Origin: Escherichia coli
GTDB taxonomy: Bacteria; Pseudomonadota; Gammaproteobacteria; Enterobacterales; Enterobacteriaceae
Length of the DNA: 64,000 nucleotides
Direction: 5' to 3' (one strand)
Assembly (NCBI RefSeq): GCF_003334355.1
Contig: NZ_QOWP01000021.1
In this document: positions 1 to 53,024 of the stretch, piece after piece
Position numbering within the stretch: position 1 is the stretch's first letter
How the letters are laid out: each line of letters starts with the position of its first letter
Program-made: the position numbers and the translations under genes
Notes under the pieces: model-generated
What the model was told of the DNA's origin: nothing
The model's input: the letters and a program-made list of their open reading frames with translations, nothing else
The model's database searches: none

Positions 1-71
1 GTAGCTCAGCTGGATAGAGTACTCGGCTACGAACCGAGCGGTCGGAGGTTCGAATCCTCCCGGATGCACCA
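1..71 (+). tRNA. argZ: tRNA-Arg (anticodon ACG), 5' end truncated by window edge (first 6 nt missing)
   Basis: Identical to the full copy at 270-346 from its position 7 onward; ends in CCA at 69-71. Confidence 0.8.
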
Positions 72-269: not shown

Positions 270-346
270 GCATCCGTAGCTCAGCTGGATAGAGTACTCG
301 GCTACGAACCGAGCGGTCGGAGGTTCGAATCCTCCCGGATGCACCA
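270..346 (+). tRNA. argQ: tRNA-Arg (anticodon ACG), complete 77 nt
   Basis: gcatccgtagctcagctggatagagt...ggatgcacca; cloverleaf with ACG anticodon in ggctACGaacc loop; recalled E. coli arg tRNA sequence. Confidence 0.9.
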
Positions 347-1663: not shown

Positions 1664-3247
<1,584 letters not shown>

Positions 3248-3255
3248 CAGAAAAG

Positions 3256-3328
3256 AAAAAGGCCACTCGTGAGTGGCCAAAATTTCATCTCTGAATTCAG
3301 GGATGATGATAACAAATGCGCGTCTTTC
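3256..3328 (-). ncRNA. micA: MicA (SraD) sigma-E-dependent small RNA
   Basis: Reverse complement reads GAAAGACGCGCATTTGTTATCATCATCCCTGAATTCAGAGATGAAATTTTGGCCACTCACGAGTGGCCTTTTT; located between gshA and luxS as in E. coli. Confidence 0.8.
3261..3285. terminator. Bidirectional rho-independent terminator (gshA / MicA)
   Basis: Hairpin ggccactcgtgagtggcc flanked by A-run upstream and T-rich tract downstream. Confidence 0.7.
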
Positions 3329-3396
3329 ATATACTCAGACTCGCCTGGGAAGAAAGAGTTCAGAAAATTTTTAAAAAAATTACCGGAGGTGGCTAA

Positions 3397-3912
3397 ATGC
3401 CGTTGTTAGATAGCTTCACAGTCGATCATACCCGGATGGAAGCGCCTGCAGTTCGGGTGGCGAAAACAATGAACACCCCGCATGGCGACGCAATCACCGT
3501 GTTCGATCTGCGCTTCTGCGTGCCGAACAAAGAAGTGATGCCAGAAAGAGGGATCCATACCCTGGAGCACCTGTTTGCTGGTTTTATGCGTAACCATCTT
3601 AACGGTAATGGTGTAGAGATTATCGATATCTCGCCAATGGGCTGCCGCACCGGTTTTTATATGAGTCTGATTGGTACGCCAGATGAGCAGCGTGTTGCTG
3701 ATGCCTGGAAAGCGGCAATGGAAGACGTGCTGAAAGTGCAGGATCAGAATCAGATCCCGGAACTGAACGTCTACCAGTGTGGCACTTACCAGATGCACTC
3801 GTTGCAGGAAGCGCAGGATATTGCGCGTAGCATTCTGGAACGTGACGTACGCATCAACAGCAACGAAGAACTGGCACTGCCGAAAGAGAAGTTGCAGGAA
3901 CTGCACATCTAG
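3397..3912 (+). CDS. luxS: S-ribosylhomocysteine lyase (AI-2 synthase)
   Basis: 171-aa ORF; HTLEH metal-binding motif; matches recalled LuxS. Confidence 0.95.
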
Positions 3913-3940: not shown

Positions 3941-3970
3941 AAAAAGCCAGTTCAAATGAACTGGCTTAGT
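3941..3970. terminator. Bidirectional terminator between luxS and emrB
   Basis: Hairpin agccagttcaaatgaactggct between convergent genes. Confidence 0.6.
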
Positions 3971-3975
3971 TGTAC

Positions 3976-9921: not shown

Positions 9922-10103
9922 TGTAGGCATGATAAGACGCGCCAGCGTCGCATCAGGCATTGTGCACAGAACGGCGGATGCGGCGAAAACGCCTTATCCG
10001 CCATACGGAATGAGTGTATTTTGTAGGCATGATAAGACGCTCCAGCGTCGCATCAGGCATTGTGTACAGAGCGGCGGATGAGGTAAAAACGCCTTATCCG
10101 CCC
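9922..10103. repeat. REP/BIME palindromic elements (two tandem units)
   Basis: Repeated gtaggcatgataagacgcgccagcgtcgcatcaggcat and cggatgcggcgaaaacgccttatccgcc motifs. Confidence 0.8.
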
Positions 10104-32388: not shown

Positions 32389-32464
32389 GGCCCTTTAGCT
32401 CAGTGGTTAGAGCAGGCGACTCATAATCGCTTGGTCGCTGGTTCAAGTCCAGCAAGGGCCACCA
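32389..32464 (+). tRNA. ileY: tRNA-Ile2 (anticodon CAU, lysidine-modified type)
   Basis: ggccctttagctcagtggttagagcaggcgactCATaatcgc...gggccacca; recalled ileX/ileY sequence. Confidence 0.85.
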
Positions 32465-33213
32465 AATCATTATTTACGTATCAGGAAGAGTTAAGGGTAC
32501 AAGGGGTACTCGATGGCGGTCTATATTTCATGACTAACGCCATTTCAAGGAAGAAGTGCGGTGGGTGGTTTCGAATGAGGGCTGGTGTTTTGGTACGTGG
32601 CACGCCACTGCAATGTATTTATCCATCAGTACTCATTCAAAAGTACCTGGAAAAAATGCCTGCTATGCCAAGCGGGCAAATTGCTTACATGTGGAATTAA
32701 GTAATTAACGATAAAGCCAGAGTATTATCATTTATTATACCCCTTCATTTAATCAGGTTAATTACTCAAATCACTGAACTATTCTCTGTTCGCTCACTGA
32801 TGATAAGTGAGTACCACAACCAATGTATGTAGAACAATGCCGTAGAGTAAGGATGAAATGTCTCTGCCACGCCTTAAACATCTACTACTGACCAGAACAC
32901 CCGCCGCAGGCAGATGAGTTTTGTGAGCGTTACAGGAGCGTGGCTATGCTCATTAACCAACGCTATTGAGATATAAATTTCTAACACTTGAAAAACGATT
33001 TTCACTAATAAATTATAACGGTTTTTTTTATCATACAGCGAAATAACCTTTTGTTTATTAAATTTAACATTCCTGTGCTAATTTAATTAAAAGTTCCATG
33101 CGTAGCAAGTGAAGCAGTTAATGTCAGTAATTGTCTCAAATGAGCGTTTTTTATAGTGACAAACAGTAATAACATTAAAAATAGCCATGTAGACATTAAT
33201 TGAGGAATAGACA

Positions 33214-33696
33214 ATGTTAGTTAGTAAAAGCAACGGATTTAACGCTAGCGCAGTTTTGGGTAGTGGAAGTTATAATGAAAATAAATCTTCTAAACACATG
33301 GAGCTACTAGCTCATAGTATTTTAAAATTAATTTGTAAGGAAGCTGCATCAGAGACGTATCGCGGTGCTCTTGAAACTTTACAAAAAATGATGTCTGAAT
33401 GTATATATCAAGAAGGCAACGCCTTTGTCATTATGGGAGCTGGAGAACAATTAAAACGTATTAAATATGAAGTTGGTGAAAATAACTTAAAGGTATTCAA
33501 CGTACACTTTAATAATAATCACGAGTTAGTTAGTTCTGGTGAGCCTGACGTAATATGTTTAAGCAAGCAGGTCTGGGAAAATCTTCTCATTAAACTAAAG
33601 CTGGAAAACAATGAAAATGTGTTTTCTGAAACTAAAAAATTATCGAATAAAAATAATGCCGATCAGTTTTTTGAATGCGCTAAAAGAAATGAATAG
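33214..33696 (+). CDS. Hypothetical protein (AT-rich island gene)
   Basis: 160-aa ORF in AT-rich DNA next to tRNA-Ile; no recognisable motifs. Confidence 0.4.
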   Translation: MLVSKSNGFNASAVLGSGSYNENKSSKHMELLAHSILKLICKEAASETYRGALETLQKMMSECIYQEGNAFVIMGAGEQLKRIKYEVGENNLKVFNVHFNNNHELVSSGEPDVICLSKQVWENLLIKLKLENNENVFSETKKLSNKNNADQFFECAKRNE

Positions 33697-33795
33697 AACC
33701 TTTTCGATAATATAAGAAAAAGTGATTTTCATGTTGGTTTACTTAAGCCAAGTAGTACGCGTAGTGTTATTTTAGAAACGCCGCCAAATGTCTGT

Positions 33796-34587
33796 ATGGA
33801 ATCACGTAATTCATATGAAAACAAAATAGATGAGATTTCATCTTTGTCAGAGTCAAAGGAACACCCCATAGATATTCAAGAAAAAAAAGATGCGTTTGTG
33901 AATGAGTTCAAGGGGGTATTATTTGATAAAAATACAAGGTCTTCAGAGCTTCTGTTTAATTTTTATGAGTGTTGCTATAAGTTTTTACCAAGAGCTCAGC
34001 CTCAAGATAAAATCGATAGCTATAATTCAGCACTGCAAGCTTTTTCCATTTTTTGTTCATCTACGTTGACACATAATAATATAGGCTTTGATTTCAAATT
34101 ATTTCCTGAAGTCAAGCTGTCTGGAGAACATCTTGAAACGGTATTCAAATACAAAAATGGCGATGATGTCCGGGAGATAGCCAAAATTAACATTACTCTC
34201 CAAAAAGAAGAGGGTGGTTTATATAATTTACGTGGATTGGATTTTAAGGGGTGCTTCTTTTCTGGACAGAACTTCAGTAACTATGATATTCAATATGTGA
34301 ACTGGGGAACGTCATTGTTTGATGTTGATACTCCGTGTATTTTTAATGCGCCTGCTTACAACAAGAGTAATGAAAAATCATTAAAACCTGTGAGCGAAAA
34401 CGGTTTAAGTGGAGTATTGACTGATCGTAATAATAAAATAAAACTCATCACGGGCGTGGCACCATTCGATGATATTTTATTTATGGATGATGACTTTGAT
34501 GATAGTTCCTCTGAGGATGATCCCGTTGAGAATAGTCCTGTTGTGACTAGTCCCGTTGTATCAAGTTCTAAAAGCAGTTTTCAATGA
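33796..34587 (+). CDS. Hypothetical protein (AT-rich island gene, acidic Ser/Pro-rich C-terminus)
   Basis: 263-aa ORF in AT-rich DNA. Confidence 0.45.
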   Translation: MESRNSYENKIDEISSLSESKEHPIDIQEKKDAFVNEFKGVLFDKNTRSSELLFNFYECCYKFLPRAQPQDKIDSYNSALQAFSIFCSSTLTHNNIGFDFKLFPEVKLSGEHLETVFKYKNGDDVREIAKINITLQKEEGGLYNLRGLDFKGCFFSGQNFSNYDIQYVNWGTSLFDVDTPCIFNAPAYNKSNEKSLKPVSENGLSGVLTDRNNKIKLITGVAPFDDILFMDDDFDDSSSEDDPVENSPVVTSPVVSSSKSSFQ

Positions 34588-34920
34588 TTAATAAATGGCA
34601 ATTTTTACAAAGAGATAATAACGTAGATTGAAACAATATGTATTATTGATTGAGTAAACGGGATTATTCTTCACACTACATCCATTTTAGTGTCACTACC
34701 AAAGAAAAAGGGGCTACGTTTTCATGTAACCCCTTGATTTATTTGGTGGGCTGGCAGTGACTGAATTGGTGCTGTAATTGGTTGAAATATTTCATCTAAT
34801 GTCTGGTTCAACTTTCCTTAGCTGCCTGAAAGTTTTTTGATCTTACCCAGCAATAACAGCGTTACGGTGCACCACGCCTGACTGAAGAACTGCGTGCTCA
34901 GGGTTACCACTTCAACGTAA

Positions 34921-35160
34921 AACCGTGGCAGGAGGTCCGGACTGAAAAAACTGGTCAGGACATCATCGGCAGGGAACGCACTGCTAGTCTGTAAACTGAA
35001 CCGACTGGGGCGCAGTATGTGGCATCTTGTCGTGCAGTTGGAGGAGCTGTGCGAACGTGGTATTAACTTTCGTGCTCTGGCCCAATCTATATTTGCCCAA
35101 CAATGGGGGGACGAATGCTGTAAAAGTAAAACAATCTGCGATCTCAAAGTTATTGTGTGA
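34921..35160 (+). pseudogene. Fragment of a Pin/Hin-type serine DNA invertase (pinH-like remnant)
   Basis: Frame reads [37 protein letters not shown], matching the serine recombinase catalytic core; no start, truncated both ends. Confidence 0.6.
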
Positions 35161-35489
35161 TTTTTATGTGAGCAGAAGATATTCATCAGAAACGATTATG
35201 TAAATCATTTTATTTTGCCAACGGCCTCATTGTCGAAAGAAAAGAATACGCCCGTATTTCCTGAATGGATTGACTTTTTTATCCAACCACACTTCAGCGC
35301 ACTGCGTTTAAAAAATGCCTCATTCTTATGCGGAATATCATCATTTCATCATGATGTCTTTGATGAGCGGTGAACACAATACACTTGCGCTGTCTCTTCA
35401 GGATGAATCCCCTGGTCTGGTGCCTGTGGGCTGATGTTGCAGCAAAGCTAAGGTCGCTTAAACGCTACTCAGTATTCACTTTTCAGAGG

Positions 35490-38400
35490 ATGAAATTTAT
35501 GAACAGGACCAGTCCCTATTATTGTCGCCGCTCAGTACTTTCCTTATTGATATCTGCCTTGATATATGCCCCGCCCGGGATGGCTGCCTTCACTACTAAT
35601 GTTATTGGTGTGGTAAACGATGAGACTGTAGATGGCAACCAAAAAGTGGATGAACGAGGTACAACAAATAACACTCATATTATCAACCATGGCCAGCAGA
35701 ATGTTCATGGCGGGGTATCTAATGGAAGTCTTATTGAATCTGGTGGATATCAAGATATAGGAAGTCATAACAATTTTGTGGGGCAGGCTAATAATACAAC
35801 CATTAACGGTGGCAGACAGTCAATTCATGACGGGGGTATTTCCACAGGTACGACAATCGAGAGTGGCAATCAGGACGTTTATAAAGGGGGTATCAGCAAT
35901 GGAACGACAATTAAGGGCGGTGCTTCACGCGTAGAGGGAGGGAGTGCGAATGGAATACTCATTGATGGTGGTAGCCAGATAGTAAAAGTTCAAGGGCATG
36001 CTGATGGTACAACGATAAATAAGTCTGGCTCTCAGGACATCACGCAAGGAAGTCTGACAACGAACACAACCATAAATGGTGGTCGACAGTATGTTGAACA
36101 GAGCACAGTAGAAACAACCACCATTAAAAATGGCGGTGAGCAAAGAGTATATGAGAGCCGTGCGCTGGACACGACGATTGAAGGCGGAACTCAGTCTCTG
36201 AATAGTAAGTCAACGGCAAAAAATACGCATATCTATTCTGGTGGCACGCAAATTGTTGATAACACCAGCACCTCGGATGTTATTGAAGTTTATTCTGGTG
36301 GCGTGCTTGATGTTAGTGGTGGTACGGCAACAAATGTTACCCAGCACGATGGTGCAATTTTAAAAACTAACACTAACGGTACGACGGTGAGCGGTACGAA
36401 TAGTGAAGGTGCATTCTCCATCCACAATAAAGTGGCAGACAATGTGTTGCTGAAAAATGGAGGCCATTTAGAAGTATCTCATTCCGCAAACAAGACGATT
36501 ATTAAAGATAAAGGAACAATGTCAGTTTTAACCAATGCTAAAGCTGATGCGACCCGAATAGATAATGGCGGGGTTATGGATGTTGCAGGAAACGCGACAA
36601 ATACCATAATTAATGGTGGCACACAGAATATTAATAATTATGGCATAGCCACAGGCACCAATATCAACAGCGTAACGCAAAATATCAAAAGCGGCGGGAA
36701 AGCTGACACAACAATTATATCCTCCGGGAGCCGGCAGGTTGTTGAGAAAGATGGTACGGCAATTGGCAGCAATATTAGCGCCGGAGGCTCGCTGATTGTC
36801 TATACCGGCGGTATTGCACATGGGGTTAACCAGGAGACGGGCAGTGCTTTAGTTGCCAACACGGGCGCAGGGACTGATATCGAAGGATACAACAAGCTCT
36901 CTCACTTCACTATTACCGGAGGGGAGGCTAATTATGTTGTGCTGGAAAATACCGGCGAACTGACGGTAGTGGCTAAAACCTCGGCGAAAAATACCACCGT
37001 TGATGCTGGCGGTAAACTGATCGTCCAGAAGGAGGCCAAAACAGATACCACCAGACTTAACAATGGCGGCATTCTGGAGGTTCAGGACGGTGGAGAGGCT
37101 AAGCATGTAGAGCAACAATCCGGCGGCGCATTAATTGCTTCCACGACTTCCGGAACACTTATCGAAGGAACCAACAGTTATGGTGATGCTTTCTACATCA
37201 GGAATTCAGAAGCTAAAAATGTAGTGCTGGAAAACGCTGGCTCATTAACAGTCGTCACTGGTTCCCGGGCAGTTGATACGATTATTAATGCCAACGGCAA
37301 AATGGATGTTTATGGAAAAGATGTTGGCACTGTACTTAATAGTTCTGGCACCCAAACAATATATGCCAGTGCCACTTCTGATAAAGCAAATATCAAAGGT
37401 GGCAAGCAAACGGTATATGGTTTAGCCACTGAGGCAAATATCGAAAGTGGTGAACAAATTGTTGATGGTGGGTCAACAGATAAAACACACATCAATGGTG
37501 GCACGCAAACCGTTCAGAATTATGGTAAGGCGATCAATACCGATATCGTCTCTGGCCTACAACAAATTGTGGCAAACGGGACAGCGGAAGATTCCATTAT
37601 TAATGGCGGTTCACAGGTAGTTAATGAGGGCGGTCTGGCTGAAAACTCGGTGCTTAATGACGGCGGCACACTCGATGTGCGGGAGCAAGGCAGCGCAACG
37701 GGGATACAGCAGAGTAGCCAGGGCGCGTTGGTTGCAACCACCAGGGCGACGCGGGTCACAGGGACACGCGCTGATGGCGTCGCGTTCAGCATCGAGCAGG
37801 ATGCGGCGAACAATATCCTGCTGGCAAATGGCGGCGTGTTAACCGTGGAGTCAGACACCACTTCCGCCAAAACACAGGTCAATGCGGGCGGTCGGGAGAT
37901 CGTCAAAACAAAAGCCACTGCGACAGGCACGACGCTCACCGGCGGCGAACAAATCGTCGAGGGGGTGGCGAATGAGACAACAATTAACGACGGCGGAATA
38001 CAAACAGTTTCAGCTAACGGAGAGGCAATAAAAACAAAGATCAATGAAGGCGGTACGCTGACAGTCAACGATAATGGCAAAGCGACAGATATCGTCCAGA
38101 ACAGCGGTGCCGCTCTCCAGACGAGCACGGCTAACGGTATTGAAATCAGCGGTACTCACCAGTACGGTACTTTTTCCATTTCCGGCAATTTAGCGACCAA
38201 TATGTTGCTGGAAAATGGCGGTAATTTATTGGTATTAGCAGGTACCGAAGCTCGCGACTCCACGGTTGGCAAGGGTGGGGCAATGCAAAACCTGGGTCAG
38301 GACTCCGCCACAAAGGTTAACTCTGGCGGGCAATATACCCTTGGGCGGTCAAAAGATGAGTTTCAGGCTCTGGCCCGGGCAGAAGATCTCCAGGTCGCTG

Positions 38401-47171: not shown

Positions 47172-48113
47172 ATGGATGCACTGCATGTCGCGCTTGAAAA
47201 TCTGATTAGAGATGATGGTCAAACACTAAATAGTTATTTTAGTGAAGTTAAAGTTAATTCATTGATTGAAAATACAAATGCAACTTGTCATTTTCATTGC
47301 CTTAATCTTGATGGCAATGGACGTCCTCGGGTAGACGCGTTAATCCAATTCTTGAACGATAAAGTAGTTGATTATGCTATTCCAAGGAAAAAAATCAATG
47401 AGGCAGTGCAATATTTTAATGAAACACAATCAACAGCGAAAATAACAAAATTAGCAAATCAAGCAAAAAGATTATTTACTAGGCTTGCAAATAGTGGCGA
47501 AGGCGGTGAATTTATCCTTTTTTTATTTGCAGAGCAATTCCTTAGATTTCCACAAATTATTTGCAAAATGAGCCTGAAAACGAGTTCTCAAATGCATTAC
47601 CATGGTGCAGATGGAATACATATAGGCGTAGATAAAGATAATAAAAAATTATGTTTATACTGGGGCGAGTCTAAACTCTATTCCAGTCTGAGCAAAGGTA
47701 TTTCTGAGTGTATGGATAGTATAGCTCCATTACTTCAAAGTTCTATGGGAATAGAAGGCGCTGAGACACGTGATATGCAGTTGCTGGAGTCGCACTTAAA
47801 TGTTGATGATATAGAACTAGAACAAGCGTTGAAAAGATTCTTAGATCCTGATAGCCCGGATTTTAATAAATTGGAATACAGAGGAATATGCTTAGTTGGG
47901 TTTGATCTTAAAGATTATCCACAAGGGCCCAGTTCAATTGATATCAGTGAACTAGTTGCTTTGATTAATACTAAAGTCGGGAAATGGTCAACTAGTGTGC
48001 AAGGTGGTATAGTTAATAAAAAACTTGATCGCTTTGCTATGCATGTTTTTATTCTTCCTTTTCCTTCAGTAAAAGCATTTAGGGCTAGTTTAATTAAAGC
48101 ATTGGAGAGTTGA
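47172..48113 (+). CDS. Cargo gene 1: putative PD-(D/E)xK-like nuclease-fold protein, HamA/DUF1837-like candidate (313 aa)
   Basis: AT-rich ORF; E(110-113)...D147 (GADG)...E166-S-K168 (GESK, 47667-47675) arrangement; no P-loop; coupled to downstream helicase. Confidence 0.45.
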   Translation: MDALHVALENLIRDDGQTLNSYFSEVKVNSLIENTNATCHFHCLNLDGNGRPRVDALIQFLNDKVVDYAIPRKKINEAVQYFNETQSTAKITKLANQAKRLFTRLANSGEGGEFILFLFAEQFLRFPQIICKMSLKTSSQMHYHGADGIHIGVDKDNKKLCLYWGESKLYSSLSKGISECMDSIAPLLQSSMGIEGAETRDMQLLESHLNVDDIELEQALKRFLDPDSPDFNKLEYRGICLVGFDLKDYPQGPSSIDISELVALINTKVGKWSTSVQGGIVNKKLDRFAMHVFILPFPSVKAFRASLIKALES

Positions 48114-48114
48114 A

Positions 48115-50697
48115 ATGTCGTTGCGAGATTTATCTGGGTGGTTGATTAAGAATCAAGGATTCTTAAGAAAATATCAGGCATTAGTCGCTAACTCGATAAA
48201 AGATCAATTTCCAGAGTTAAAATCAGATGTAATCCCACAGATTAGTTCTGAGGATGTCGGCTATCTTTTAACATGTGCTAGTTCTTTGGCTTTCTCAAGT
48301 GATGAGAAATGCCAAGATGCAGCCTTAAGGATTGCACAGTATTGCTTATTGAATGAAAAAAGTGAAGCAAGAAAAGATAGTGCTGCATTAATTCTTGATT
48401 CATTATCTAATAATCCAGCAATACAACTTGCTGAAAATAGGGGGTATCTTAACCCTGATTTCGAAGAAAGATTACCCTTAAAGGCTCAGTTAGAACTAAC
48501 TAAAAGAAAAATTCTATATACAATTGAAATAGATGCTGATAAGCATATTTATGCTAATAGGTTTCAATCAGAGTTTTGGGATGCGGTACAAGAAAACTCA
48601 TGGGTTAGTGTCTCTGCTCCCACCTCTGTAGGAAAATCATTTATCCTGGAATCTTGGGTGGAGCAGTTTGTAAAAAGAAATAAGAATTGCTTAGTTATTT
48701 ATATCGTACCAACAAGGGCATTGATTTCAGAAGTATATTCTGAGTTGCAAAAACGTTTGGATCCTAATTTAACAAATATAGTTAATATTCAGACACTACC
48801 ATTGAGTAATGTATACCAGAGCGAAAAATCTAATGTCTTCATATTTACACAGGAAAGATTAAATTTATTCTACAATCATTTCTCACAAATTCCAAAGATA
48901 GACGTCTTAGTTGTTGATGAAGCACACAAGATCGGTGATGGTGGAAGAGGTGTTATTCTTCAACATGTAATTGAACTGACTTGTCTAAATAACCCTGATT
49001 CAAAAGTTATCTTTGCAAGTCCTTTCACCTTAAATCCTGAAATATTGCTCAGTGATGCTCCAATATTAAAAAACAAAAGAACTATAAAAAGTGACTATGT
49101 TACAGTTAATCAAAATTTAATATGGGTAGAACAAAAACCACGCAAGACCAAAGATTGGTTGATGTATTATTTTGCAAACGGTGAAAAACGCGAGTTAGGA
49201 AACTTTTCTTTAGAAAATGCACCATCTCCTGAAAGTAAAAGATTGCCTTTTGTAGCTCTTTGTTTAGGTAAGGGGGCTTCTGGTAACGTAGTTTACGTAA
49301 ATGGAGCCGCTGAAGCAGAATCTACTTCCAAGCTAATATCTGCAAGTATAGAAAATGAGACTGAGGATGAAGAAATTTTAGCTCTCGTTGAGCTTAGTGA
49401 GACAATTATACATAAAAATTTCGCATTAAATCGCACTCTAAAAAAGAGAGTCGCTTTTCATTATGGCAACATGCCTTTAATAATAAAGGGCGAGATTGAA
49501 CGATTGTTTAGTAAAGGTAAGATTGATTTTTTAATTTGTACCTCAACTTTAGTTGAGGGCGTAAACATGGCTTGTAAAAATATTTTTATAAGAGGCCCTA
49601 AAAAGGGTAATTCAACCCCGATGCGAGAAGAGGATTTTTGGAATCTTGCTGGCAGAGCTGGTCGTTGGGGAAAAGAATTCCAAGGTAATGTCATCTGCAT
49701 CGATAGCGACAATGAAAAAATTTGGAATGGAGAGCCTCCAAAAACCAAAAAAAATATATTTATAACTCGCGCCACGGATGCTATTTCCCATGACATGGAT
49801 AAGTTGGTTTCCTATATTTTTTCAGAGCATCATTTTGGTATGTCTGAGCGGAATCCTAATCTCCAGAGTCTATTTAGTTATTTATGTTCATCATTTTATT
49901 TTTATAATGGCTTGGATAATAATCCTTACATGGAAAAGTACAATATAAAAAATATCGATGTTTTAAATGAAGCAATATTTGATGTTTTTGATTCTTTAAC
50001 TTTTCCACACGAATTGGTTGTGCGGCATCCTGGTATAAGCCCGCTTTTAATGCAAAACCTTTGGGATAGATTTTCGCGGGATACAAACAAACCTGTAGAG
50101 AGATTACTGCTTTCTGAACCTGGTAGTAATGATGCGTTAGATTCATATGTATCCGCATTCTCTAGAATTAGTGATACTCTGAGTAAGAAGCTAGGTTATA
50201 ATTCAAAAGGAGCTTACGTACAGGCCTTGCTAGTTTCCAAGTGGATGAAAGGTTATCCCCTAGCAAGATTGATCTCGGATAGAATAAGATATAACAAAAA
50301 GAAAAATATTGTTTTCAAAGAAGCGACTTTAATACGAGGGGTTATGAAGGATGTTGAAGAGATCGCTCGCTATCAAGCTCCAAGGCTTTTAGGATGTTAT
50401 AATGATTTATTAAAAAGCTTTTATCTTTCGATAGATCGCACAGACTTAGCAAAAGATGTTGAAGATATCGGTGTTTATTTAGAACTAGGTGTAAGTTTAA
50501 AAACTCAGATTTCACTAATAGGGCTTGGCTTTTCAAGAACTGCTGCTGTAATGATTTCAGAGCTTATTCCTAATGATAGTTTAGATGAGGAAGAATGCAT
50601 TAATTGGATTAAGGACAATAAAGTTGACATGGAAGAACTGCCACAATTAGTTCAAAACGAAATACATAATATATTTCGTAACTTTTGGGTACAATAG
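48115..50697 (+). CDS. Cargo gene 2: SF2 DEAH-box helicase with about 340-aa C-terminal extension, HamB-like candidate (860 aa)
   Basis: Walker A APTSVGKS (GKS 48631-48639), DEAH (48916-48927), TSTLVEGVN, motif VI AGRAGR (49648-49665); ATG 1 nt after upstream stop. Confidence 0.6.
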   Translation: MSLRDLSGWLIKNQGFLRKYQALVANSIKDQFPELKSDVIPQISSEDVGYLLTCASSLAFSSDEKCQDAALRIAQYCLLNEKSEARKDSAALILDSLSNNPAIQLAENRGYLNPDFEERLPLKAQLELTKRKILYTIEIDADKHIYANRFQSEFWDAVQENSWVSVSAPTSVGKSFILESWVEQFVKRNKNCLVIYIVPTRALISEVYSELQKRLDPNLTNIVNIQTLPLSNVYQSEKSNVFIFTQERLNLFYNHFSQIPKIDVLVVDEAHKIGDGGRGVILQHVIELTCLNNPDSKVIFASPFTLNPEILLSDAPILKNKRTIKSDYVTVNQNLIWVEQKPRKTKDWLMYYFANGEKRELGNFSLENAPSPESKRLPFVALCLGKGASGNVVYVNGAAEAESTSKLISASIENETEDEEILALVELSETIIHKNFALNRTLKKRVAFHYGNMPLIIKGEIERLFSKGKIDFLICTSTLVEGVNMACKNIFIRGPKKGNSTPMREEDFWNLAGRAGRWGKEFQGNVICIDSDNEKIWNGEPPKTKKNIFITRATDAISHDMDKLVSYIFSEHHFGMSERNPNLQSLFSYLCSSFYFYNGLDNNPYMEKYNIKNIDVLNEAIFDVFDSLTFPHELVVRHPGISPLLMQNLWDRFSRDTNKPVERLLLSEPGSNDALDSYVSAFSRISDTLSKKLGYNSKGAYVQALLVSKWMKGYPLARLISDRIRYNKKKNIVFKEATLIRGVMKDVEEIARYQAPRLLGCYNDLLKSFYLSIDRTDLAKDVEDIGVYLELGVSLKTQISLIGLGFSRTAAVMISELIPNDSLDEEECINWIKDNKVDMEELPQLVQNEIHNIFRNFWVQ

Positions 50698-50789
50698 TCT
50701 TATTTAGACGATTTTTTAAACAATCAATAGAGAAGTTTTTGAATTTTATCATTCTTCCAGTAACAAAAACTTCTCTTTTATAACACCGC

Positions 50790-51248
50790 TCAGGCTATTC
50801 CAGAATAGGCTTTGCTTACTTCACTATGCCTTGTGCCGCAATGCCTCAAAATAACAAGGCCATGTTGCAGTAACGCCTCACTACGTTCAGGTTCAAACCA
50901 TTTCCCGTTAAATTTTCCTCCGTGAAAAAGATTGTTTCTTACACGGCGGATTAACAAAAAAAGAAATTTTGCTAAATCTTTTTCTTGTGGTAAAGAATCA
51001 TCCCAAACTAAAGAGTCATCTTCTATGATTTGTTTTTTGGGTGGGTGTTCTTTAAAGTAGGTGATAGCAGCAATTAGCTCTGGATCAGTTGTGTTATTTA
51101 TGATTTCAGAAACTTGCTTTGCATACTCATCCCAGTTCGCTTTAGCATCTTTTATTTTATGATGAAGTCCACATGCCTTAAGGCAATATTCGTAACGTGA
51201 AAACTCTCTAAAGAATTCATAACATAAATTATCTAGATTATTCTCCAT
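50790..51248 (-). CDS. Hypothetical protein (152 aa), AT-rich cargo ORF between helicase and integrase
   Basis: Clean ORF convergent with the helicase operon; no recognisable motifs. Confidence 0.45.
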   Translation of the reverse strand: MENNLDNLCYEFFREFSRYEYCLKACGLHHKIKDAKANWDEYAKQVSEIINNTTDPELIAAITYFKEHPPKKQIIEDDSLVWDDSLPQEKDLAKFLFLLIRRVRNNLFHGGKFNGKWFEPERSEALLQHGLVILRHCGTRHSEVSKAYSGIA

Positions 51249-51277
51249 GAACTATATCTCCATGTATAACAAGTTAA

Positions 51278-52477
51278 CTAATATTGATTGCGCTCGTACA
51301 CTTTTTGGCCCCACCAATTCATAAGTCCTATTCGTTGCTCAAGGTAAGTTGAACGATTATATGCTCTGCGCACTTCATTTTTATCACTATGTGCAAGAGC
51401 AGCCTCAATTACATCTGCATTAAAACCCGCTTCATTTAATGCGGTGCTGGCAATTGAACGCAATCCATGAGCAACCAATCTACCACCAAATCCAATCCTT
51501 TTTAAAGCAGCATTTGCCGTCTGGCTATTCATTGGTTGCTTTGGGTCATTCCGACTCGGGAAAACATGTTCACGATGGGCACTGATTAGCTTCATCACAT
51601 CAAGAATCTCTAATGCCTGAGGAGATAGAGGGACTATGTGTTCCCGCTTAGCCTTCATTCGTTCAGCTGGGATAGTCCAGAGCTTTGCATCGAGATCGAG
51701 CTCAGCCCACCTAGCACCGGAAGCCTCAGAAGGACGAACTAGAGTCAGGAGTTGCCACTCAATGAGGCAGCGAGTCGGAACAGACAAATTTGACATGACG
51801 AGAGAACGCATCAGCATAGGCAATTCTTCTGGGCGCAACGTAGGCATATTTTGTTTTTTTGGCTTCTCAAAGGCCATTCCAATGCCTGATGCTGGATTGG
51901 CATCAATAAGACCAGTATTTACGGCATAAATCATTATCTCGTTAACACGCTGCACCAACCGGCGCACCGTCTCCAGCGCCCCACGAGCTTTGATCGGTTC
52001 AAGGGCTTCAACCAGTGTTCGGGCTTTGATTTGCTGGACAGGGATCTCCCCGATGGTGGGGAATACGTCTTTTTCCAGTGAACGCCATATATCTTTAGCG
52101 TAATCATGGGTAACGCTTTTGCTTTTGAGCTGGAACCAGTTAGCGGCGACCGTCGAAAAAATACTGTCCAGAGCGATTTGCTGCTGTTCCTCTGCAACTT
52201 CAGCTTGAATTTGCGGGTCGATTCCGTTGGCTAATAGGGCAAGGTAATCTGCTCTTAACCCTCGGGCATCAGCAAGAGAAAGGGCAGGAAAAGCACCAAG
52301 TCCCATCATAGTCCGCTGTTTTGTTGCTGGGCGTTGATAGCGAAAGCGCCAGAGTTTCTTGCCGCTAGTTTTCACTATCAGGAAAAGCCCATCGCCATCA
52401 TGCAGCGTTAGATCCTTCTCTAACGCTTTCGCGCGCAGAACTTCGGTGTTGGTCAGGGGGCGTGTTGTCCGTGCCAC
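51278..52477 (-). CDS. int: P4-type tyrosine integrase
   Basis: 399-aa ORF next to tmRNA 3' end; C-terminal catalytic region with HGLRSIAST and RAYNRSTY (His/Arg/Tyr). Confidence 0.85.
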   Translation of the reverse strand: MARTTRPLTNTEVLRAKALEKDLTLHDGDGLFLIVKTSGKKLWRFRYQRPATKQRTMMGLGAFPALSLADARGLRADYLALLANGIDPQIQAEVAEEQQQIALDSIFSTVAANWFQLKSKSVTHDYAKDIWRSLEKDVFPTIGEIPVQQIKARTLVEALEPIKARGALETVRRLVQRVNEIMIYAVNTGLIDANPASGIGMAFEKPKKQNMPTLRPEELPMLMRSLVMSNLSVPTRCLIEWQLLTLVRPSEASGARWAELDLDAKLWTIPAERMKAKREHIVPLSPQALEILDVMKLISAHREHVFPSRNDPKQPMNSQTANAALKRIGFGGRLVAHGLRSIASTALNEAGFNADVIEAALAHSDKNEVRRAYNRSTYLEQRIGLMNWWGQKVYERNQY

Positions 52478-52498
52478 TGTGGCCGCTCCTTCATGAAT

Positions 52499-52551
52499 TG
52501 GTATACGCTTTTAGGTATACATCCTACCGTATACCTAAACGTATACCAATA
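52499..52551. promoter_or_regulatory. Cluster of four GTATAC-containing repeats including the direct repeat gtatacctaaacgtataccaata (52529-52551), candidate integrase arm-type sites / int promoter
   Basis: GTATAC at 52501, 52515, 52529, 52541; 23-mer matches 40306-40328. Confidence 0.55.
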
Positions 52552-52661
52552 ATCATCGGATTTAGCCGGATGTTCTCGGACAACGACAAACACAAAAAAG
52601 CCCGCAGGGCTTGTGCCATGCGGGCTTTCTGTACTTCACCGGACGTATCCGGATCATTATT

Positions 52662-53024
52662 TGGTGGAGCTGGCGGGAGTTGAACCCGCGTCCGAAATTC
52701 CTACATCCTCGGTACTACATGCTTAGTCAGTCTTTACATTCGCTTGCCAGCTGCGGACGGACACGCCACTAACAAACTAGCCTGATTAAGTTTTAACGCT
52801 TCAACCCCAGGCAGGGCTTCCACGCGATCTCTTTTGGGTTTGACCTCTCTTGATCCCCGTCCTAAGAGCGGAGGCTAGGGAGAGAGGGCTCTAAGCAGGT
52901 TATTAAGCTGCTAAAGCGTAGTTTTCGTCGTTTGCGACTATTTTTTGCGGCTTTTTACGAGGCCAACCGCCCCTCGGCATGCACCTTGGGTTTCGCAAAT
53001 CCCGTCGAATCCAGAATCAGCCCC
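52662..53024 (-). ncRNA. ssrA: tmRNA (SsrA), 363 nt
   Basis: Reverse complement begins GGGGCTGATTCTGGATTCGACGGG and ends ...GGGTTCAACTCCCGCCAGCTCCACCA; tag ORF region present. Confidence 0.95.

Follow-up and report, generated by a model that had tools for sequence, protein, structure and literature searches.

The minus strand of positions 3253..3328 in the 64,000-nucleotide stretch of E. coli DNA analysed here (the window) carries micA, which encodes MicA, the Hfq-dependent small RNA of E. coli formerly called SraD; we put the probability of this identification at about 98%. The hairpin at which the RNA ends is built to terminate transcription in the MicA direction only and is not a canonical bidirectional terminator: RNAs read from the opposite strand, which carries gshA, end in or near it, but not as an intrinsic terminator would have them end. 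MicA itself has been known since 2001, at first as SraD, and its characterisation goes back to 2005 (review PMC4618604); its presence in the usual location between gshA and luxS is already known and brings no new biology.

A cmscan search of the whole 64-kb window matched the Rfam MicA family RF00078 at 3328..3257 (-), with a score of 83.9 bits against a gathering score of 41 (E = 1.4e-11), and the match is complete, covering model positions 1–75 of 75. The initial annotation had recognised MicA in the minus strand of 3256..3328, GAAAGACGCGCATTTGTTATCATCATCCCTGAATTCAGAGATGAAATTTTGGCCACTCACGAGTGGCCTTTTT (also given as GAAAGACGCGCAUUUGUUAUCAUCAUCCCUGAAUUCAGAGAUGAAAUUUUGGCCACUCACGAGUGGCCUUUUU), and had placed it between gshA and luxS on the strand opposite to both. 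The sequence and the full-length Rfam match agree with the first of these claims, and the open reading frames, the RefSeq annotation and identity to K-12 with the second; the covariance-model search that it had put forward as the means of refutation was run, and RF00078 scored well above its gathering score. The proposed coordinates, 3256–3328, are to the base those of the reference annotation: K-12 b4442 (micA; 2814802..2814874) projects precisely onto window 3328..3256, within a segment (3150..3401) that is 100% identical to K-12 MG1655. We found no evidence against the identification. All of the experimental evidence on micA comes from K-12 and is carried over here by sequence identity in the micA locus.

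The 5' end of MicA is the G at 3328 (-), which is both the published +1 and the position at which the Rfam model begins. The 3' end lies at 3256 in the K-12 annotation of b4442, at 3257 in the Rfam match and at 3253 in published Term-seq data, the gene being given here as 3253..3328 (-) on the combined basis of RF00078, K-12 identity and annotation, and Term-seq. The Term-seq coordinates were taken from supplementary file 1 of Adams et al. 2021 (PMC7815308), and their mapping to the window was checked with the luxS-terminator and thrL entries. The MicA 3' end, K-12 2814877(+), corresponds to window 3253 (GGCCUUUUUCUU), three nucleotides past the annotated end, and falls within the U-tract in all three conditions reported (PMC7815308).

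In its sequence, its coordinates relative to gshA and luxS, its promoter, terminator and predicted structure and its ompA-pairing region, the RNA is the same as K-12 MicA (RF00078, b4442), and the micA locus as a whole is without differences from that of K-12. The host strain, however, is not K-12, as it carries a different integrative element in the interval from an ileY-like tRNA (CAT anticodon, 32389..32464) to ssrA/tmRNA (52662..53024). The stretch between the two (32500..52600) comprises ypjA and a P4-like integrative element, whose genes encode primase-helicase, DEAD/DEAH helicase and integrase-domain proteins, and two Rfam matches lie within that element at 43690..43777 and 43846..43923 (-), C4 antisense RNA at 84.6 bits and isrK at 76.7 bits. 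At least 80% of this stretch is found in only 18 of 5426 E. coli genomes, which identifies the strain as something other than K-12. Elsewhere in the window, two tandem matches to naRNA4 (RF02564, nucleoid-associated ncRNA 4 / CssrE) lie at 9926..10003 and 10026..10103 (-), scoring 73.4 and 59.6 bits, respectively, the second barely above the gathering score of 59.5.

The micA region is near-universal in the species: a 401-bp segment (3100..3500) was found in 5424 of 5426 complete E. coli genomes, 5271 records having it at 99% identity or more. The K-12 MG1655 annotation includes micA. The one PGAP-annotated RefSeq feature table that we examined, that of E. coli NZ_CP025913.1, has gshA and luxS annotated but not micA, and in the summaries of features for the ten best genome matches gshA and luxS are the only two named; micA may thus be widely unannotated despite being present in 5424 of the 5426 genomes.

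On the plus strand, gshA (glutamate–cysteine ligase) occupies 1691..3247, with a TTG start codon, and luxS (S-ribosylhomocysteine lyase) 3397..3912, both from the list of open reading frames and from RefSeq annotation of identical DNA. Accordingly, micA converges with gshA and diverges from luxS, whose ATG lies 68 nt past the MicA 5' end. Only 6 nt separate the gshA stop codon from the 3' end of MicA, so that formation of the gshA 3' end and micA are physically entangled. Further upstream, before yqaB-yqaA-gshA, are a tRNA clipped by the start of the window (1..68 (+), seen by Rfam only) and tRNA-Arg(ACG) at 270..346 (+).

To compare the locus across other Enterobacterales, an exact-pattern scan was made with one genome per species, giving at least 120 loci from Citrobacter, Enterobacter, Klebsiella, Yersinia, Serratia, Pantoea, Erwinia, Pectobacterium, Dickeya, Edwardsiella, Hafnia, Rahnella and other genera. 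The search pattern fixed MicA nt 2–27, so that conservation of the 5' end and seed in this set is partly forced. Among the matches listed, 110 of 120 micA loci have gshA downstream and convergent and luxS upstream and divergent, and the remaining ten are clipped at one end.

MicA folds into an open 5' region, a first stem-loop, a linker and a terminator hairpin followed by U residues, and this two-hairpin minimum free energy structure has an energy of -20.5 kcal/mol (z = -2.98). Stem-loop 1 (nt 23–44; 3285..3306 (-)) is seen in the minimum free energy fold, in the Rfam consensus structure and in covariation, and is followed by the AU-rich linker AAUUUU (3279..3284 (-)), a published Hfq-binding site (PMC4618604). 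The terminator hairpin proper, GGCCACU-CACG-AGUGGCC (nt 51–68; 3261..3278 (-)), has a stem energy of -11.0 kcal/mol, and the U-tract behind it, UUUUUCUU (3253..3260 (-)), contains the Term-seq 3' end. In an alignment of 95 sequences from the matches listed, the pairs of the Rfam-type structure form in 98.7% of cells, against 28–52% in slid controls, with compensatory changes at four pairs and a covariation score that none of 500 shuffles reached. Three of the pairs with compensatory changes are in stem-loop 1, which is 98.3% paired among the matches listed; the terminator hairpin, in the same set, has five invariant pairs and one that covaries.

The mechanical list of open reading frames includes one of 48 codons at 3330..3184 (-), its ATG lying over the MicA 5' end, and the region might on that account be read as coding for a small protein. 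We rejected this candidate and give it practically no credence. Transcription begins at the G of that ATG, leaving the start codon outside the RNA; the reading frame has no Shine–Dalgarno sequence; MicA ends at 3253, well short of the stop codon; and MicA homologues carry indels of 1, 2 and 5 nt in the loop and linker regions, none of them a multiple of three.

Upstream of micA, a match to the sigma-E pattern GAACTY-N15-17-TCNRA, in the form GAACTC-N16-TCTGA, lies at 3335..3361 (-), with the -35 box at 3361..3356, a 16-nt spacer and the -10 box at 3339..3335. Six nucleotides, GTATAT, lie between the promoter and the MicA 5' G (3328). As a stand-alone statistical signal the motif is to be rejected, there being two matches in the window against 1.4 expected; with the count so close to expectation, only position and conservation are informative. 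Among the matches listed from other Enterobacterales, all 107 distinct upstream sequences have TCnnA at -11..-7, with the C of the -10 box invariant, and all 107 have RAACY at -35; the region from -60 to -38 is 81% A+T in the same sequences. In the window this AT-rich element, ATTTTTTTAAAAATTTT (3364..3380 (-)), lies upstream of the -35 box and adjoins the luxS ribosome-binding site on the opposite strand. Such an arrangement is as published, the micA promoter having been described as bearing a sigma-E signature with an AT-rich element upstream (PMC1851643). The same study (Udekwu and Wagner) found, with the same E. coli sequence, that overexpression of rpoE induces MicA and that a delta-rpoE strain is without it. 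The sigma-E promoter that the initial annotation had suggested looking for around 3335–3370 is thus there, at 3361..3335 (-), with its boxes kept in 107 of 107 sequences among the matches listed.

The target-pairing region of MicA, nt 8–24 (3305..3321 (-)), is single-stranded and pairs with positions -21 to -6 of the ompA mRNA, over the Shine–Dalgarno sequence. This strain's own ompA lies outside the window and that of K-12 was used instead; with K-12 ompA as proxy, RNAduplex gives the duplex an energy of -21.7 kcal/mol, and shuffling the 5' 24 nt of MicA 1000 times gave only four sequences that paired equally well. The nt 8–24 columns are invariant in the 95 sequences among the matches listed, partly as a forced result of the search pattern. 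The computed pairing agrees with the published interaction (PMC4618604), which has been validated by compensatory mutations and is Hfq-dependent. Other trans targets in the literature include lamB, ompX, phoP and fimB, among others, and binding of MicA by Hfq is likewise established there (PMC4618604); here, the AAUUUU linker and U-tail are present in the sequence. The promoter boxes, the ompA pairing and the two published accounts (PMC1851643, PMC4618604) together bear out the description of MicA, in the initial annotation, as a sigma-E-dependent regulator of outer membrane protein mRNAs.

Put together, these elements give the following course of events. Under envelope stress, the sigma-E promoter would drive synthesis of MicA (the dependence being that reported in PMC1851643), and transcription stops at the canonical intrinsic terminator, after hairpin 3261..3278 and UUUUUCUU, as both computation and Term-seq show. 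The unstructured 5' region (nt 8–24) of the resulting RNA of ~72–76 nt pairs, by computation, with the ribosome-binding region of ompA and, according to the literature, in similar fashion with further envelope-related mRNAs (lamB, ompX, phoP and others). In the published regulation, pairing blocks translation and leads to decay of the mRNA, and hence to less synthesis of outer-membrane proteins under envelope stress. The present analysis provided the sequence identity, the structure, the signals of the promoter and terminator and the potential for pairing, while sigma-E dependence, Hfq dependence, target repression and processing by RNase III are taken from the literature.

RybB, the other sigma-E- and Hfq-dependent omp-repressing small RNA of the enterobacteria, has no known cis-antisense partner; MicA, in contrast, overlaps the luxS leader. 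Both RNAs are made from a sigma-E promoter, carry a single-stranded seed at the 5' end, stop at an intrinsic terminator and repress omp mRNAs (PMC1804206; PMC4618604), but they differ in sequence family and locus.

The luxS leader brings a second, cis-acting role for MicA into view. A published sigma-S-type promoter, P1, starts luxS transcription inside gshA, giving a long 5' leader at 3065..3396 (+) (PMC2956633), and window position 3065 is a G, as published for the P1 start (-332). Since the long leader begins inside gshA, MicA is a perfect cis-antisense partner of it, and the P1 leader is indeed reported to be antisense across all of micA and to be processed, in a MicA- and RNase III-dependent manner, to a shorter species, R3 (PMC2956633). 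Both P1 and P2 luxS transcripts overlap MicA, and production of R3 needs RNase III and MicA (PMC2956633); going by the literature, the duplex of MicA with the luxS leader would be cut by RNase III. A sigma-70-like match, ATGATA-18-TATACT, also lies on the luxS strand at 3306..3335 (+), over the MicA 5' end and discriminator. As a promoter it was rejected, there being one match against 1.0 expected and a misfit with the published 5' end of R3 luxS, which overlaps MicA by 14–15 nt (PMC2956633).

A perfect palindrome between convergent genes invites the further suggestion, made in the initial annotation, that gshA and micA share one bidirectional terminator. As far as a canonical intrinsic terminator is concerned, this is very unlikely. 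Several observations are in its favour: the stem has an energy of -11.0 kcal/mol whichever strand is read; gshA ends just 13 nt upstream of hairpin 3261..3278; Term-seq assigns the 'primary' gshA 3' end to a position inside the hairpin; and no polycistronic gshA-luxS message is reported (PMC2956633). The terminator scan, however, called hairpin 3278..3261 on the minus strand only, with the tail TTTTTCTTTT, and left uncalled the plus-strand (gshA-strand) tail, AAAATTTCAT or, as also given, AAAAUUUCAU. On a d'Aubenton-Carafa-type scale, the MicA strand scores d = +43.6 and the gshA strand -25.1, the stem energy being the same for both and the difference residing in the tail (nT 5.59 on the minus strand versus 1.80 on the plus strand). 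This asymmetry is general: among the matches listed, at least five T residues occur in the 8-nt tail of the MicA strand in 113 of 113 species and in that of the gshA strand in none of the 113, where the tail begins with A or AA in most species. The gshA strand has no U-tract right after the stem because its tail complements the AU-rich Hfq linker (AAAAUU on the plus strand).

The mapped 3' ends and the known transcripts point the same way. MicA ends a few nucleotides past its stem, at 3253, while the gshA-strand end maps to the loop, at 3269, rather than 0–10 nt past the stem, and no plus-strand 3' end past the stem (after 3278) is listed in PMC7815308. Nor does the hairpin block read-through in both directions: luxS P1 transcripts, starting at -332 (3065), cross 3261..3278 (PMC2956633). 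In the literature searched, MicA and the term 'bidirectional terminator' occur together only where the term has nothing to do with this locus and refers to synthetic terminators on reporter plasmids. Of the claim of a shared terminator there is left, then, that gshA-strand ends map in or near the hairpin; the absent U-tract, the d value of -25.1 and the documented read-through speak against the remainder, and the statement that the same hairpin terminates gshA, taken to mean a canonical intrinsic terminator, falls with T-rich tails in 0/113 species among the matches listed and a 3' end in the loop.

A second hairpin in the window, at 3944..3971 between the convergent genes luxS and emrB, has a T-tract on the emrB side only (d = +21.3, versus -16.8 on the luxS side). 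A luxS-strand 3' end with 208,906 reads maps 4 nt past that stem (K-12 2814159, window 3971; PMC7815308), and of the two hairpins it is this one, rather than that of micA, that seems the likelier to be shared by convergent genes.

Where, then, do gshA-strand RNAs end? The 'primary' 3' end on this strand, at 3269 (+) (K-12 2814861), lies in the hairpin loop, practically at the dyad centre (3269.5) of stem 3261..3278, and is listed for LB OD 0.4 and one other condition (PMC7815308). In LB at OD 2.0, in stationary phase, the plus-strand end is instead at K-12 2814914, window 3216, with 305,886 reads, more than MicA has in the same sheet (PMC7815308). This second end falls within the coding sequence of gshA: the stop codon is 31 nt further on, and the luxS P1 start is 152 nt away. 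On the gshA sense strand, no Rho-dependent region is listed in supplementary file 2 of PMC7815308. The sole gshA entry there, K-12 2815245(+) with a Rho score of 4.87, is antisense to gshA, at about window 2885 (-) (PMC7815308). On the MicA strand this is ~370 nt beyond the 3' end of MicA, and the entry may reflect Rho clearing MicA read-through or other antisense transcription.

One account of the two ends, which we hold only tentatively and at less than even odds, is that they are processing products: gshA mRNA and the luxS P1 leader would read into micA, pair with MicA and be cut by RNase III, with trimming by a 3' exonuclease leaving the ends at 3269 and 3216. No signal for termination is present on the gshA strand, and MicA- and RNase III-dependent conversion of P1/P2 luxS transcripts to R3 has been demonstrated (PMC2956633). 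The shift of the end to 3216 in stationary phase, with its very high read counts, also fits, stationary phase being the time when there is more of the sigma-S-dependent P1 transcript (PMC2956633) and when MicA is reported to accumulate (PMC4618604). In E. coli, moreover, 3216 is 5 nt beyond a stem (3065-3075 / 3201-3211) that closes the 152-nt segment 3065..3216, giving a 5-nt 3' overhang. Against this, the account assumes that the two ends need MicA or RNase III, and an exonuclease would be expected to halt on the 3' side of the stem and not in its loop. The 3065..3216 fold is itself not significant (z = -1.25), and the stem that closes it is not kept in other genera, with 59% of cells paired versus 27–45% in slid controls and all 11 pairs present only in the window sequence. 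The idea that 3065..3216 is a conserved structured RNA made from luxS P1 is, on these two counts, unsupported.

Convergence itself could instead be the cause. Overlapping bidirectional terminators have been reported for convergent gene pairs of E. coli by Ju et al. in 2019, from SEnd-seq. One such pair, ynaJ-uspE, has been studied by the Liu laboratory (bioRxiv 10.1101/2022.10.23.513370), and in the model terminators need neither look intrinsic nor be Rho-dependent. Applied to the present locus, pausing at the hairpin together with head-on collision between polymerases on the gshA strand and on micA would end gshA, the hairpin being a non-canonical 'overlapping bidirectional terminator'. In favour of this, gshA and micA are convergent, their 3' ends overlap by 17 nt (3253..3269) in a region centred on the hairpin, the gshA strand is without intrinsic features, and the sense strand of gshA has no listed Rho region (PMC7815308). 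We nevertheless consider this explanation unlikely. Transcripts in the model end after crossing the hairpin, whereas the gshA-strand end is in the loop, at the centre; the MicA side, unlike the published cases, has every feature of a canonical intrinsic terminator; transcription of micA is weak in the absence of stress, but exponential-phase cells show the 3269 end; and read-through is documented, P1 transcripts of luxS passing through the hairpin (PMC2956633).

The 3269 end might also be a library artefact, produced (for example by template switching or snap-back) at a palindrome next to the abundant MicA, in which case the real gshA 3' end would be heterogeneous. Its position at the dyad centre (3269.5) of stem 3261..3278 is what such an origin would predict, and MicA reads at this hairpin outnumber those of the gshA strand ~4-fold (143109 versus 34625). 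The end was, however, curated from two biological replicates and seen in two growth conditions, and the loop and flanks differ by strand and make the reads distinguishable; an artefact is accordingly a rather doubtful explanation.

Recognition of MicA in this stretch mainly shows that a reader of sequence alone could name a known small RNA and place it exactly to the base. That a palindromic hairpin between convergent genes should serve both as a terminator is intuitive and, as a canonical mechanism, wrong here. How the gshA transcript ends is a small question in its own right, with the U-tract absent, no Rho region listed and the mapped end at the dyad centre. One speculative answer, which we regard as improbable, is that the MicA hairpin doubles as a non-canonical 3'-end site for the gshA strand in a way that depends on micA transcription or on MicA itself, whether by collision or by MicA-guided RNase III cleavage, and that sigma-E would thereby tune gshA 3' ends and stability as well as read-through into luxS. 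If so, envelope stress would be coupled to glutathione synthesis and to AI-2 production through a single 18-bp palindrome conserved in the Enterobacterales.
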